A stretch of DNA of 64,000 nt from an uncultured Puniceicoccaceae bacterium (GCA_963933835.1 CAWVVV010000001.1:160001-224000); one strand, 5' to 3'; positions 39,001 through 45,000 are shown, numbered from the stretch's first letter. A program made the numbers.

Positions 39001-42000
39001 AGACCGATCACCATCAAGCTAGGAACAAAACCAGCCAGCCATAATGGCCCGCCTTCCTGCAAGATCACCGCCGGTAGAAATGTCTGCGCATTCACAAACC
39101 CCGCGCCAAAGACATACATCCCACCTTCTAACAGGTAGACCCCATAGTTTCTACGCTCCTCCCTCGATCGCATCCCCTCAATTCCTCCTTGATCCCTCAT
39201 CCGGCAAGGAAGAAATCAATCTCACTAAAATGGCTGCGGTTTAAAATTTCCGCATTGCCCCAAAGAACCAATACGCCTTCATCATCCACCATCCGACTTG
39301 TCCCCATAGTTCAACGGATAGAACAATGGTTTCCTAAACCGTAAATCTGGGTTCGATCCCCAGTGGGGGCGCCATTTAATTATCCCATAAACTCAGCACT
39401 TGAGCCGTTTCAAAAAGAATCGCTTGGATCAAGCACACCCCTATAGAACCCCTTAAAGCAGCATAATAGCCGCCTTAAATGTTCTTAATTCGTTCTTAAC
39501 GATTCTTCAGCAGGCCTGAATTGCCGCATTGCTCCTCGCATCCTACTTCCAATGTGTTTTGGCCGATGGAGAGAGCGGGGTTCGAAATCAGTTTAAGTGC
39601 TGATAAACAGTGACTTGCAACGCTACTATGCGGGTTCGGGTGGCGTTGGGTTGCGGGGAATGTGCGTAGGATTGCACTCAGGATGACAGGAATTTGGCAG
39701 GAGGTTGGTGGGAAAACAATGGAGCAGGAACTGCGCTCGGACGTGGAGAGAATCGCTGATGCGCTGTAAAAGCAGGATCATCTTGCCTGACCATTGTTAA
39801 ACGATCATCAATCGAGCATGTTCTATCATATCCGGCTGTTATGCCGTCATCATCTGTGCTTCTCGATTGCTTGCTTTGCTCTTTTGACCGCCACATGCAT
39901 CGCGGTCGATGACGCCGCAGGAATAGATCCCGAAACTTTGCAGGCCGCAGAGCAGGGACACGCCGACGCTCAATATAATCTGGGCGTTGCCTACAACTTT
40001 GGCAATGGCGTCATCAAAGACTACGAAACGTCCTACATGCATTTACTTCTGGCGGCAGCACCGGGTAACCAACAGGCTGCGGAATTTGGTGATAAGATTG
40101 AACTCAAATTGACCCCTGAGGCTATCTCCCGAGCCCAGAAGGCAGCATCTGCGATGCTTGAAGCAATCAAGGCACGCCAGAACGCCGAGTAGCGTTCCAA
40201 AGGCTCTATATCGGTTTTCAGCTTTAGGCGTGTCTTTTCGAATAAATTGAACTGCGCCTGTCTCACCGCTGATTTCAACAGCTTGGCGCGTTGCCTCTGC
40301 AGTCATCATGATAACTTTGGCCTTGGGATCTTCGCCCAAGATTTCTTTGAGGGCAGAGAGCCCATCGAGAATAGGCATGTTGATATCAAACAACGCCAAG
40401 TCCGGGCGATACTCTCGATAGAGTTCGACGCCTTCCTTGCCATTGCCTCCTTCGACGAATTGCTCGATACCCATGTTTTTTAATAACATGCGGATATAGA
40501 GCCGGACGTGGGCTTCGTCATCTACGATGAGGACCGATTGCGGTAACGACTTTTCCATTGTGCTCCTCACCTATACCGGAGCTGCACGGAGTAGCCTGAG
40601 ACTTTTTTTACACTTTTAGCAATCTATCTGAAATGGAGCGTTCGTAGCTAAGGCTTACAGCCCAAAAACCCCTCAAATTCGCGCCATTTCTCACTGTTCG
40701 ACAAATGAACGATAACGTTTCCGCCATTCTTTGAGTTTCTTTAGATATGCCCCAGGATCGTAGGGGCACGTCACCGGATCGAAATGTTCGAGCGGATGGG
40801 CTCGCTGCCAGTCAGCTGTCTGTCCCTTGGATCTTGGCCCGATGAAGTAGCTCACCTTGTCGCCTGATCGAGGGGTGGGTTCAATCTTGAGCGCCACTTC
40901 GAGCGACGCCCGGCGCGGCTTTCCACCTGCCGCAATCTTCTCAGCATAAGCACTTGGGTTCATACTCAGGTATTCGCTCTTAAGAAGGCGCACCACCGGC
41001 ATCGAGCTCTCTTCAATCTGCTCAGCAAAGCGCTGCCAACACGTCAGCACTGGTTCATCCTCTAACCCTAGAAGGTGCGAAATCAAGTGGTGCGTAAGAT
41101 CCTTCAGAAACGGCTCCGTTGCCCGTGATCGCAGCGCCGAACCTCTTACCCGAATCTGGTCTCCCTCACGCAGAGCATAGTTCTTCGCCTTGTAGCAAAA
41201 CATCCGCTCATAGCGGCCATCGAATTCCAGTTCGATCCCTTCGGGCAGGGTCGCTTGCGCAGCCGCTAGAAGCAACTTTGGTGCCTCGAAGTCATCGCCC
41301 GCCTGCACATAGAGCCCATCTGTGTCAGCCTCTAGGACGGAGTGGCCGTTCTCCTCAAACCAAGCAATGAGTCCCTGAAGAAGCTCCCGACCACGCAACG
41401 TCACCTCGGCCGCAAGATCTCCGTCCGCAAAACGTGCGCCTGCAAACCCCAGATACCCATAGAATGAATTGATCAGGATCTTAAAACTGTTTTGGCGCGC
41501 ATCAAACTCAGCTTTCACCGCAGGATCCGTCGCTGTCCGTGCCTTCTCCTTATACTCTAGGCGATAAGCTCGCAGCTCTTTGAGCAAAGGAATCATCGCC
41601 CCAAGACTGTCATTCACTGGGTCACGGCCGATCTGGATAAGCAGGCTCGGGTAGAGTGATGCAACGTCGAAGTGTAGGACATTTTCGAATACACCTTCGC
41701 CAAACGATTTTGAAAATCCTCCAGCAAACGGAGCTACCCCGCCCGGGATTGAGAGCGCAGCTTCACCACGGAAATACTTCTCCACCATGAGGAGATCTAC
41801 CTTTGCACCGGTACCGCGCAGCAAGGCTTCTTGGAGCAAAATCGGAAAACTCTGACACTGAGCAACGTAGGTCGGAAGAAGACGGTCTGCGAGACCGGCA
41901 GTCTCACGTAGGTCATCGGCAAGGTAACGATCAAAAGCCTCTGGGTCTTCGCGGAAGGCATCCTGGATTTTGTCTCCCGGTAGATAGGTGCGATCATCAC

Positions 42001-45000
42001 TCTCCGTCGTGATACCAAAATACTGAGCGGCCACCTTTAGACCATAGCTCGGCAGATCGCGCTTAGACACGTCCCAGAGCTGAAGGGCCATGAGCGTATC
42101 GACAACAGTGCGCCCTGGTATGTCGCAGCGCAAAAAATCAAGCTGTCGCTCCGCAACGCGCTGGCGACTGGATCGAAAGCGCGCGAGCTCGCCCTCACGC
42201 CCCCACGCCATTTTCACCCGGTAGCGCCGGCAGCGGGTGCGGAGATATGCCAAGTCGAAGTTAAAGATATTATGCCCCTCGATCGTGTCTGGGTCTGCCT
42301 CTTGCAGAGCCACGTCCAAGTCCTTGAGCAAGTTGAGCTCGGCAGCATCACTCTCCTCTTCTAGACGTAGAATCCGCGGCGACTCTTCATGCGAGAAACG
42401 TAGTCCAATCGCTAATACACGATCGCCCGGTCGAGTGGCATCAGGAAAATTATACGGAGGTGTTGTCGCGACTTCGATATCGAGTTGGCACCGACGCAGT
42501 TCAGAAAAGCGCATGCCGCCAAAGAGCCTCTCTCCGGAGCGTAGGAGCCATTGCTGTTCGAGCGGTTTGACCACCTCGCCAGAGCGCCCAACCGCCTTAA
42601 TCCCTTCTTTCGCCTCCGCGACGGACGAAAAATCAACGCGGCTATCGAGCTCGCCCTCGCCTGCCAAGGGCACCGCGTTCCCGGGTATCTCGGCCGCGAG
42701 TTCAGATGCGCACCAGAGAAAGGGTCTAAAGGCTGCCGTCTCAATCGACGTCGCTCCAGCGCATTCACCACGCCGAGCGACCTTCATCTGGTCGTCACTA
42801 TCAATCCATAGGCCAACGATTGGAGCCGATTCACTCATCCTAAAAACCTACCGAATATTTGCCCTCACGCAACCGCCAAGACGGATCATTACCAACATAT
42901 TGATCAAGATGAAACGTAGTCGCTAAACTCATACATTGCGGGGTCTCATTCGGGCGCTTGACGTTTTTTCAACCAGCGTGAGACGCGCTCCTTCGCTCCA
43001 CCTTCACCACTCTCTGCCCCATCCCCGAAGACATCATCTCCATCCCCGTCGAGGATGTCGCCATACTGTTCTTCGAGCTTCTCGGGATCTTCGCCTCGTT
43101 CAAGACGTTCGACCATCTCTCGCATTGGGCCCGGTAGCTTTTCGCCCGTTAGATCACTCATCCGGCGCATGAGCTGTCCGAGTTGGCGTGGATCTGGGTT
43201 CTCTTCGTCGATGCCTCCCATCTCACTTTCAAGTTGGGCCATCGCAGCCTCCATTTTCGGATCATCAGAGTCAGCGTCGCCCTCTTCTCGACCTGTCGTA
43301 ACAGCGAAACTTGAGACCTGGCGCTCCATGAGCGCCTTCGGGTCATCGGGGCAGCGTGGCGTCTTGTCGGTCGAGCTGAGACTACGAGCGAAGAAGCTGT
43401 AGATCTTGTGCGTATCAGGGGAGTAAAACTCGTAGATCGGCATGAGGCAATCGGAACGCTTTCGGACAGAAGCTAGCGCAACCCACCTTGTTGAAAAATC
43501 GTCGCAATAGGCAGGAAGAGCGCAATCACGATGGTCCCGACGATTACGGCAAGAAGGACGATCATGATGGGCTCAATCATGGCGGTCAGGCCGGAGACAG
43601 CTGTATCCAGTTCTTCCTCATAGGTATCAGCGATGCGCTCGCACATTTCACCGAGCTGACCCGTTTCTTCCCCTACCTCGACCATACTCGGAACAAAGGC
43701 GGGGAACACTCCGGAGCGCTCTAGCGGGCGGGCCAAGGTATCACCATCTTTGACTCGCTCACGGACGTCATCGAGCGCCCGTTGAACAACCGTCTGCCCG
43801 ACGACATCTCGCGATATTTGAAGCGCATCCAGAAGAGGCACCCCACTTTCGAAAAGCGTTCCAAAGGTGCGAGCAAAACGGCTCACGGCGAGTCGCTGGG
43901 AAAGTCCTTTGGCCAGCGGTAGACTAAAGACCAAGCGATCCCAAAGCTCCTTGCCGACTTTACTCCGAAGAAAGGACTGACCGCCGACAATCAACGCGAC
44001 TAAACTCTATAGGACAAATTCACCTTAAGCCCTAGGCTGTGCACAAGCCTCTCTAAGTCTTCGGCAAGTGGGATTGTCCAGCGTGTGCCTTTTATCCCAA
44101 CCACCGGAGGGATGCTCAACTGATAGGCATGCAAAGCGTGACGGGGATGCTCTGTGGAGGGTTCTGTGCGATACCATTTTTCTCCGACGACGGCATGTCC
44201 GAGATGGGAAAGATGGATACGGATTTGATGGGTACGGCCCGTGTGCAGGGTCGCACGCACAAGCGCATGACCCTGCGCGCGACCTATGACACAAAATGAT
44301 GTCCGTGCTTCTTTTCCGTCAGCACAAACGCCTAGATTATTCGGGCTCAACTCTCCGATTGGAAAGTCCGCTTCCATCGTCTCCCATTCAGGCTGCCCCT
44401 CTACGACGGCGAGATAGATCTTCTGCGTCTCTGGGGTACTCCAGCGAGCCTTGACCTTTTTCACCAGTGCTTTTGAGCGTGTAAACAAGCACACGCCGCT
44501 TGTGTCGGCGTCGAGTTGGTGGAGCGCCCAGACCATCGTTCCAAAGTGCTGGATGAGATGAGCCTGCACGCAGTTCTGATCGTCCAGCGTGAGGCCCGTC
44601 GTTGGGAGTCCCGGTGGCTTAGCGACAACAACGAGGTCGCCATCAAGCTGATGGATGAGGTCCGCTACGTTGTGACTACCGAGCATGGCTCAGTTGATCT
44701 CAACGCTGAACACGCACGTCAAGCGGATCGAAGAGAAAAGCGGCAGCCAAAAGCGCGAGCTATATACCCAGACCTACCGAATCCAGTAGCTCTGAGCTAT
44801 TCGACTCCAAAGCCGCACGCGCAAATTCGTTCGCAATATGTCCACAGGCAAGAATGCCCCATTGGGTTTTCCCATTCATCAATAAATTGCCAAAAGGCGG
44901 ATGCAGGAACGGGGGGCCTGCTTTCTAGCTGACAGCACCCACCATCCAAGAATGCTAGAGAAATGAGCACGCACGAGAAAAAGTGGATCGCAGACTTACA

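Follow-up and report, generated by a model that had tools for sequence, protein, structure and literature searches.

What fills the gaps left by DNA replication and repair in a bacterium without DNA polymerase I (Pol I)? In the usual view, Pol I is near-universal among bacteria, and their family-B polymerases are dispensable accessories. The question is raised by a locus in an uncultured Puniceicoccaceae bacterium, where a family-B polymerase (PolB) is encoded in a genome for which no Pol I was reported. We analysed a stretch of 64,000 nucleotides around this gene, referred to as the window, together with the whole genome and its phylum, the Verrucomicrobiota.

A predicted proofreading family-B polymerase

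The polB gene and its features are located in the window as follows.

40691..42838, minus strand: polB, intact 715-residue family-B DNA polymerase (open reading frame with ATG start; Pfam)
42035..42502, minus strand: 3'-5' proofreading exonuclease domain, residues 113-268 (DNA_pol_B_exo1, 2.4e-10)
42473-42481, minus strand: ExoI, D120-I-E122, inside the exonuclease domain
41645..41668, minus strand: motif A, DVASLYPS, residues 391-398
40733..41590, minus strand: polymerase domain in its Pfam extent, residues 417-702 (DNA_pol_B, 4.7e-21)
41315..41332, minus strand: motif C, E-A-D-T-D-G, residues 503-508
40691..40756, minus strand: C-terminus, ending in KKLKEWRKRYRSFVEQ and the stop (tail comparison among homologs)
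40043..40570, minus strand: response-regulator receiver protein, downstream neighbour, context only (Response_reg, 2.1e-22)

Both Pfam domains score above the gathering cut-off of 23 bits (75.5 and 40.7 bits), which places the protein in family B. Motif B (KILINSFYG, residues 453-461) and the KxY motif (K552-N-Y554) lie within the Pfam polymerase domain. The full set of signatures is present: ExoI (DxE), ExoII, ExoIII, A (DxxSLYPS), B (KxxxNSxYG) and C (DTD). The reading frame and both domains agree with the first-pass annotation, which had described an intact 715-residue PolB, and its positions for DIE, DVASLYPS, KILINSFYG and EADTDG hold.

We compared 30 PolB homologs from across the phylum. 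ExoI residues D120, I121 and E122 are conserved at 90% or more. Invariant residues comprise H189, N190, F194 and D309 of the exonuclease; D391, S394, L395, Y396, P397 and S398 of motif A; K453, N457, S458, F459, Y460, G461, K552, N553 and Y554 of the polymerase; and E503, D505, T506, D507 and G508 of motif C.

The search with PolB recovered the gene from its own genome at 100% identity (G000:C1:200694-202838). One contig of the independent run X2 carries the same polB gene with two substitutions and no indels, and contigs from runs X2 and X4 confirm the 3' end. The only RNA trace of polB is a single 167-base contig in one metatranscriptome, for which DNA carry-over is possible. Judged from gene and motifs, PolB is predicted to be a catalytically intact, proofreading family-B polymerase.

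Relationship to known family-B polymerases

Bacterial PolB group G3 was defined by Kazlauskas et al. 2020 (PMC7544198), who describe a conserved motif C glutamate as a synapomorphy of PolEpsilonN, B10 and G3. The traits credited to G3 are a canonical three-part architecture, an active DnaQ-like exonuclease, plus a motif that binds the beta clamp (PMC12926913). Our protein shares the motif C glutamate (E503-A-DTDG) and the arrangement of N-terminal, exonuclease and polymerase regions, with intact exonuclease and polymerase sites. On the glutamate and the architecture, it is probably of the G3/EpsilonN-like type. In Table S2 of PMC7544198, Opitutae and Verrucomicrobia sequences that are visibly similar to it are filed only under 'PolBmain'.

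Escherichia coli Pol II (group G1) is likewise a proofreading bacterial family-B polymerase encoded by a single-subunit chromosomal gene. We rejected this identity. NCBIfam equivalog models for Pol II gave 78-122 bits against cut-offs of 570-1435, and ExoII reads GHNIFNFD, compared to GWN in the Pol II clade. Profile E-values were 1e-31 to 1e-32 for Pol II structures but 1e-74 for archaeal PolBs. The closest solved structures by profile were 1wn7, 2jgu and 1tgo (1e-72 to 1e-74).

The C-terminus departs from what is credited to G3 in PMC12926913. PolB stops about 20 codons short of the Q-x-E-L-F/L tail, of clamp-binding type, that is present in most homologs from its own order. By a loose pattern, such tails occur in 94 of 118 database matches and, of the 68 homologs from the phylum, in 40. 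The same loose pattern, applied to C-terminal tails only, found no Q-x-x-L-F-type tail in PolB, and none was found downstream of polB in any other frame. The closest database relatives (P0003-P0009 and P0011-P0014; P0010, a 469-residue fragment, was left out of the screen) and families f1, f5 and f6 are without one too. We count this lack of a tail, in PolB and its family, against replacement of Pol I by PolB.

Pol I and nuclease genes in the same genome

The genome comprises 1.94 Mb in 10 contigs and is 97.35% complete. A six-frame search with PF00476, the family-A polymerase domain, produced no candidates and no matches; in the control set, 10 of 14 genomes were positive. Three other genes are of relevance, with positions counted along the contig.

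130068-130517, minus strand: stand-alone FEN (5'-3' nuclease), in a 342-residue frame
523966-524460: stand-alone DNA_pol_A_exo1 protein, in a 235-residue frame
477788-478012: PolX, in a 591-residue frame

The solo FEN and polB are about 70 kb apart. Thus, two further points of the first-pass annotation, the missing family-A domain and the separate FEN-type exonuclease, stand.

Distribution of PolA and PolB across the phylum

We surveyed 401 Verrucomicrobiota genomes, each at least 90% complete. PF00476 matched 182 genomes, 161 over the full model (E <= 1.2e-143) and 21 weakly (E 2.8e-14 to 3.1e-84). With PolB, 189 genomes matched at E <= 1e-10, 185 strongly (E <= 2.2e-65) and four weakly (1.7e-11 to 8.8e-14). 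The boundary between strong and weak was set after these gaps in E-value were seen. Canonical PolA is thus found in 161 genomes, strong PolB in 185, both in 0 and neither in 55. An earlier count of 121 genomes had given 54, 54 and 0, and the exclusion persists in the larger sample. N-masked stretches of up to 24 kb, present in at least 20 of the 401 genomes, could conceal a gene. Where present, PolB is single copy. At the level of genera (n = 184), 93 have PolB only, 58 have PolA only and 0 have both. Among 70 families, 29 have PolB only, 18 have PolA only and nine have neither; two include PolA genera and PolB genera.

Raw matches to both families occur in 19 genomes, 15 with strong PolB and weak PolA and four with canonical PolA and weak PolB. 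Six weak PolA matches were examined, all drawn from five 'neither' genomes. Five are proteins of 600-710 residues, and phage polymerase phrog_17 scores far better in the four tested (1e-73 to 1e-106). The sixth is a 1493-residue PrimPol-exo-PolA fusion. If these examples are representative, the weak PolA matches found alongside PolB probably differ in kind from canonical Pol I.

As noted in the first-pass annotation, some genomes have neither enzyme. A PF00136 search of these 55 genomes found 0 of 55. Six are one-contig genomes (G168, G132, G279, G153 and the 0.9-Mb G090 and G114). Furthermore, in eleven genera all 2-8 sampled genomes are 'neither' (for example, g50, 4/4; g111, 8/8; g77, 4/4). 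Hence, something else can fill gaps, and genomes can do without PolB even when Pol I is missing.

The FEN nuclease is a constant, with exactly one in 78 of 78 genomes. In 24 canonical-PolA genomes it is part of a fusion with PolA. Every PolB or 'neither' genome (50 of 50) encodes it alone, as do three genomes with a FEN-less PolA. The five sampled solo FENs form one clade (97, starred), separate from the FEN domains of PolA.

Repeated switches between PolA and PolB

Shared ancestry had been a concern at the outset, kin being non-independent and no PolB tree being available. We built an RpoB tree from 78 representatives, chosen by family and by A or B state (PolA or PolB); all trees derive from single-gene 'quick' searches. 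The state changes at least 14 times on this tree, in line with the initial proposal of several exchanges within the phylum. Starred branches alone force 14 changes for A and 15 for B. Independent pairs with contrasting PolA state number 14; PolB differs the opposite way in about nine of them, does not differ in about five and differs the same way in 0 (median sign-test p 0.004), which addresses the concern. Sister pairs of A|B state include, all at starred branches, f7|f9 (97), f3|f5 (96), f17|f13 (98) and g78|(g69, g111) (100).

A tree of PolB, with 68 rows, agrees with that of RpoB; the order of our bacterium is monophyletic (100, starred) and the large clades are the same. Hence, PolB is an old chromosomal gene that has been inherited vertically in Verrucomicrobiota.

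Four PolA lineages (g78, g76, g129 and f7) are nested among PolB lineages, and all are without PolB. Their PolAs lie on the Firmicutes-type side of a split (100, starred), with the other 36 PolAs of the phylum across it. For the g78 PolA, the nearest source-named relatives outside its own clade are Pol I of Oscillibacter, Clostridiales and Eubacteriales (53-60% identity). In three of the four lineages PolA has no FEN domain and the solo FEN is kept. The four PolAs appear to have been secondarily acquired.

A possible two-gene equivalent of Pol I

Since PolA and PolB are never found together across the phylum, they probably do the same job. The best reading of this distribution is that PolB functionally replaces the polymerase of Pol I, for which we see even odds. 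Briefly, PolB would act as the accurate gap-filling polymerase of a genome without Pol I. Together with the stand-alone FEN and ligase, it would allow RNA primers to be removed and Okazaki fragments to be sealed; it may also fill excision-repair gaps. PolB and the solo FEN would then be a two-gene equivalent of Pol I. The process served in the cell, the partnership with FEN and the importance for growth are all inferred. More broadly, in about half of Verrucomicrobiota, vertically inherited PolB and solo FEN would form a housekeeping machine for Okazaki maturation and gap filling. Displacement between this module and the one-gene Pol I, in one direction or the other, would have happened about ten times or more, at least three of them after horizontal arrival of a Firmicutes-type Pol I, with or without a FEN domain. 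We assign this fuller account a probability of roughly 0.45.

A B-family polymerase with proofreading, paired with a flap endonuclease on a separate protein, is known from lagging-strand maturation in archaea (the B3 PolB of Thermococcus and Pyrococcus) and in eukaryotes (Pol delta with FEN1). The FEN described here differs from archaeal and eukaryotic FEN1, being a Pol I-type bacterial 5'-3' exonuclease (PF02739). The clamp here would be bacterial beta and not PCNA, and no accessory subunits are evident for our PolB. Pol I itself (PolA1) joins FEN, 3'-5' exonuclease and family-A polymerase in one polypeptide. Here, nuclease and polymerase are on two genes, and the polymerase is of family B with no PF00476 homology. 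The job proposed to be shared is primer removal, gap filling and repair synthesis.

Rather less probable is that PolB serves as an accessory polymerase for repair, restart or translesion synthesis, as does E. coli Pol II, which coexists with Pol I, is SOS-induced and is dispensable (PMC12926913). Primer gaps would then be filled by Pol III or PolX with the solo FEN, and the mutual exclusion of PolA and PolB would reflect nothing more than an overlap of their roles in repair synthesis. That 55 of 401 genomes cope without either enzyme fits such a role, as does the missing clamp-binding-type tail. So does the presence of DnaE, solo FEN and PolX (a frame of about 590-640 residues) in each of five genomes checked; four of these are 'neither' genomes that are closed, including one of 0.9 Mb. 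The main text of PMC12926913 terms bacterial PolBs non-essential accessory enzymes and cites earlier work (ref. 88) in which bacteria are viable without Pol I polymerase if the 5'-3' exonuclease is present. It also places G3 PolB in every Chlorobi, and the groups it lists as depleted of Pol I are Tenericutes and Verrucomicrobia only; coexistence of G3 PolB and Pol I in Chlorobi is thereby implied. However, PolX is independent of A or B state (51/161 PolA, 54/185 PolB and 28/55 'neither' genomes), and PolA, PolB and PolX are all missing from 27 genomes. Nor would a dispensable enzyme be expected to persist by vertical descent in 185 genomes, with proofreading and polymerase residues invariant or nearly so in 30 homologs, and to disappear whenever a PolA polymerase domain arrives.

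The exclusion could also be a historical accident, with large clades inheriting a small number of ancient losses and the two enzymes functionally unlinked. Related genomes are indeed non-independent, and states are mostly fixed per family, only two of 70 having both PolA genera and PolB genera. We consider this improbable given the at least 14 state changes, the pairs that split about nine opposite to 0 the same, and the coincidence of separately acquired Firmicutes-type PolAs with PolB loss at three or more points of the tree. It is very unlikely that PolB is part of a mobile element, such as a prophage or casposon, replicating that element and not the chromosome. Family-B polymerases are frequent in phages, phage polymerase phrog_262 matches PolB at 1.7e-51, and two phage-borne G3 PolBs are on record (PMC7544198). 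Against this, polB is flanked by genes for a response regulator, a pseudouridine synthase, an MFS transporter and a T2SS-F protein. These are ordinary chromosomal or housekeeping genes, and synteny is not conserved within the family. The GC content of polB (0.51-0.56) matches the surroundings, there is a single copy per genome, and across the phylum the trees of PolB and RpoB are congruent.

Parts of this picture are already published. Group G3 dates from 2020, and Timinskas et al. 2026 (PMC12926913) report that a significant fraction of Verrucomicrobia is without Pol I, the stand-alone FEN always being retained. Those bacteria are like ours in that Pol I is gone and one stand-alone FEN is kept. 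No polymerase is assigned to them in the main text, whereas we find PolB in 185 of 240 genomes without canonical Pol I. In the main texts of PMC7544198 and PMC12926913, we found neither an either/or rule for PolA and PolB nor a tie between G3 and the absence of Pol I. The novelty first claimed is thus forestalled in part.

Implications

The phylum divides cleanly into genomes that use Pol I, genomes that use PolB and genomes that use neither; independent switches are many, and one FEN is kept throughout. If PolB does replace Pol I, bacteria would have reached the archaeal and eukaryotic solution of a B-family polymerase with a separate flap nuclease. This would be the first bacterial lineage with a B-family enzyme as a core component of the replication fork. 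It would also provide the first functional hypothesis for the G3 PolB group, known from sequence only. The switches would amount to natural experiments, run in replicate, on the need for Pol I, and cultivable Opitutaceae beside Pol I-bearing relatives would offer a genetic system for its indispensable activities. The 'neither' genomes, including one of 0.9 Mb with PolX and FEN, sharpen the question of what those activities are.

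PolA and PolB are mutually exclusive in the phylum survey

The first-pass annotation had claimed that canonical PolA (Pol I) and the PolB of the window exclude one another among Verrucomicrobiota. We surveyed 401 genomes, each at least 90% complete. PF00476 matched in 182 of these; 161 matches covered the full model at E <= 1.2e-143, 21 were weak, and none fell between 3e-84 and 1e-143. P0001, the family-B polymerase of the window, had matches in 189 genomes (185 at E <= 2.2e-65 and four at 1.7e-11 to 8.8e-14).

Polymerase states of the surveyed genomes
Canonical PolA: 161/401
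PolB: 185/401
Both: 0/401, meaning none found in readable sequence, since at least 20 genomes contain runs of masked bases (N) as long as 24 kb
Neither: 55/401

The exclusion holds in this sample, and the observation is confirmed and strengthened. Both states occurred together in none of 184 genera and in two of 70 families. A phylum-wide alignment searched against genome contigs returned 571 PolB relatives, the best 80 of which were all Opitutales-type records.

The PF00476 search of the window's own genome (G000, 97.35% complete) gave no candidates, while 10 of 14 control genomes responded. The following enzymes were found in G000.

Other polymerases and nucleases of G000
FEN (5'-3' flap nuclease), single: contig 130068-130517, 342-aa frame
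PolX, single: 591-aa frame
DnaE, single
Stand-alone DNA_pol_A_exo1 (Pol I-type 3'-5' exonuclease): contig 523966-524460, plus strand, 235-aa frame, outside the window

The last of these, in a genome that lacks Pol I, might be either a remnant or an exonuclease of the RNase D/WRN type.

Some genomes have neither enzyme

PF00136 had no match in any of the 55 genomes with neither polymerase. Six of these are one-contig assemblies, and in eleven genera all sampled genomes (2-8 each) lack both enzymes. The state is real. Weak PolA matches were considered as hidden Pol I. Five such ORFs, of 601-708 aa, have exonuclease and polymerase domains and no FEN; for the four that were tested, E-values against the phage polymerase phrog_17 were 1e-73 to 1e-106. 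A further ORF, of 1493 aa, is a PrimPol-exonuclease-PolA fusion. The ORFs examined, all from five genomes with neither polymerase, are of phage type or PrimPol fusions, and for these hidden Pol I is rejected; 15 PolB genomes also have weak matches.

The fusion is at locus L284 (G149:C2:103300-108400; ORF 320-4801, minus strand). It comprises an N-terminal Prim-Pol, a long middle with no assignment, a 3'-5' exonuclease and a family-A polymerase. Four more genomes (G231, G065, G160 and G299) have PF00476 matches of about 1e-72 to 1e-84 and may encode the same kind of replicase.

PolX was found in 28/55 genomes with neither enzyme, 51/161 with PolA and 54/185 with PolB; judged to be spread evenly over the three states, it was rejected as a hidden correlate. 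Canonical PolA, PolB of group G3 (see below) and PolX were all missing from 27/401 genomes: all eight of genus g111 (family f29), two of which have a phage-type PolA, and 19 others.

The window PolB belongs to a known group

The polB gene and the motifs of its product are listed below. The catalytic motif positions proposed in the first-pass annotation agree with our mapping.

Features of polB and P0001
polB ORF: window 40691-42838, minus strand, 715 aa, ATG start
DNA_pol_B_exo1 domain (Pfam): residues 113-268
DNA_pol_B domain (Pfam): residues 417-702
ExoI, DIE: residues 120-122
ExoII, HNIFNFD: residues 189-195
ExoIII, YLADDLRET: residues 305-313
Motif A, DVASLYPS: residues 391-398
Motif B, KILINSFYG: residues 453-461
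Motif C, EADTDG: residues 503-508
KAKNYAL: residues 550-556

Among 30 aligned phylum-wide homologs, the exonuclease and polymerase motif residues are either invariant or conserved to at least 90%. In an independent sequencing run, a single contig spans all of polB; it differs by two substitutions and has no indels. One metatranscriptome run contained a single identical 167-base contig inside polB, too little for a claim of expression, and gaps in the coverage of polB in runs X4, X7 and X17 carry no information. The GC content of the locus is unremarkable. Neighbouring genes encode a response regulator, a T2SS-F protein, a pseudouridine synthase, an MFS transporter and LRR proteins. Two short adjacent ORFs near polB (window 42946-43443 and 43473-43994, both minus strand), one of 173 aa with a single T2SSF domain and the other of 165 aa with no Pfam match, look like one PilC/GspF-type gene that is split or diverged. 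A 209-aa ORF matching only the back half of MFS_1 (38175-38804, minus strand) abuts a 131-aa ORF without matches (38805-39200, minus strand); these may be a single MFS transporter gene, frameshifted or with a miscalled start.

P0001 scores far below the cut-offs of the NCBIfam Pol II models and, unlike the E. coli Pol II clade, has no GWN in ExoII. Profile comparison ranks Thermococcales PolBs first among solved structures (1e-74); Pol alpha/delta come next, then E. coli Pol II (1e-31 to 1e-32), then Pol epsilon (1e-22). In motif C, a Glu precedes A-DTDG. This Glu is described as a mark of PolEpsilonN, archaeal B10 and bacterial group G3 in Kazlauskas et al. 2020 (PMC7544198), where Table S2 includes Opitutae sequences visibly resembling P0001. 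We assign P0001 to G3 from its motifs and architecture. In Timinskas, Kazlauskas, Timinskas and Venclovas 2026 (PMC12926913), G3 is uncharacterised, with intact sites and a clamp motif stated as a group feature, whereas P0001 has no C-terminal tail of that kind. Most homologs in its own order carry a Q-G-E-L-F/L-type tail, and P0001 ends about 20 residues sooner. The tail is also missing from its closest database relatives (P0003-P0009 and P0011-P0014; P0010, a fragment, was left out of the screen) and from families f1, f5 and f6. By a loose pattern it is present in 40/68 phylum homologs; family f4 is among the tail-bearing ones.

In genus g70 (family f22; for example G019, G037, G043 and G061), PolB was returned as two matches in many of the 19 PolB-bearing genomes, and the E-values (1e-65 to 1e-81) are weaker than those of neighbouring genera. 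The gene may be split, or may carry an intein or a large insertion.

One FEN nuclease per genome, fused or solo

PF02739 matched exactly once in each of 78/78 genomes. In 24 canonical-PolA genomes, FEN was part of a fusion frame of 854-1039 aa. It was solo (287-514 aa) in 50/50 genomes with PolB or neither enzyme, and in three with a short PolA; a contig break left the state of G110 ambiguous. Five sampled solo FENs formed one clade (starred support 97) separate from PolA FEN domains, and that of G132 did not group with its family-mate G039. Hence, for these five, a recent remnant of truncated PolA is rejected. Together, these results suggest that 'PolB + solo FEN' is exchanged as a unit for 'Pol I'.

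The RpoB tree requires repeated changes between PolA and PolB

For an RpoB tree, each family contributed one genome for every state it contains, and further genera were taken from the mixed families f22 and f29. RpoB frames, picked by BLAST to that of G000, were found in 78/80 chosen genomes (f23 and f24 dropped out) and analysed by quick IQ-TREE (LG+G4). The tree requires at least 14 changes between PolA and PolB, and 25 across all three states; choosing representatives by state cannot create changes, and rates are not to be read from it. Among 14 independent pairs differing in PolA, PolB changed in the opposite direction in about nine and the same way in none (median p 0.004). It was unchanged in about five (PolA against neither). 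Within the window's order, f7 (PolA) is sister to f9 (PolB) and f3 (PolA) to f5 (PolB).

A PolB tree (68 rows) closely matches the RpoB clades, with starred supports of 100 for the window's order, 100 for f4, and 99 and 98 for two other large clades. PolB is hence an old gene passed on vertically. The PolA tree (44 phylum PolAs and 11 database proteins) splits at a starred support of 100. On one side, 36 phylum PolAs group broadly as RpoB. On the other are f7, g76, g129 and g78, with proteins named as Oscillibacter, Clostridiales and Eubacteriales Pol I; these outgroups had been selected as best matches of g78, which makes their link to g78 a product of the selection, but the link to f7, g76 and g129 does not come from it. 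The grouping suggests a Firmicutes-type origin for all four enzymes. In g76, g129 and g78, PolA (555-715 aa) has no FEN or exo1 Pfam match; f7 PolA has FEN. The f3 PolA is sister to that of f17 (starred support 99), though f3 belongs within the order that bears PolB. Most simply, several lineages would have regained a PolA and then lost PolB. Gene order in G069, the closest relative with neither enzyme, is no guide to a clean PolB deletion, because in this family synteny of the genes flanking PolB is lost even between genomes that have it.

The g78 PolAs (L260 in G076, L268, L269 and L270; 709-720 aa) have precomputed Pfam family PF27709 in the N-terminal half instead of FEN and exo1. Many database proteins, at identities of 58-99%, fall in their clade.

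PolB as a proposed replacement for Pol I

The first-pass annotation read PolB as the functional replacement of Pol I. The underlying observation stood; the functional reading is unproven, although it is the best available, and we give it a probability of about 0.5. According to PMC12926913, Pol I is absent from a significant fraction of Verrucomicrobia and Tenericutes, in which a stand-alone FEN is always present. The same paper describes bacterial PolBs as accessory enzymes and places G3 in all Chlorobi, which on our reading implies coexistence with Pol I there. Other groups with G3 PolB are Ignavibacteria, Bacteroidota and Cyanobacteria.

The main rival is that PolB is an accessory repair enzyme and that primer gaps are left to Pol III or PolX. 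Genomes with neither enzyme are the main argument that PolB can be dispensed with after Pol I has been lost. Two members of family f14, G090 and G114, are closed one-contig 0.9-Mb genomes without PolA and PolB that keep PolX (605-609-aa frame). G090 also keeps a solo FEN and one DnaE (G090 coordinates: G090:C1:298928-299128, 174788-175297 and 485456-486241). That genomes this small keep PolX suggests it as a possible gap filler there. We consider the accessory role less likely than replacement of Pol I.

We found no statement linking G3 to absence of Pol I, or of an either-or rule, in full-text literature searches or the accessible parts of PMC7544198 and PMC12926913, though the A- and B-family supplementary sheets of the latter may already hold the raw pattern for the Verrucomicrobia genomes covered there. 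The strict exchange between PolB and Pol I, re-established repeatedly, appears to be new.
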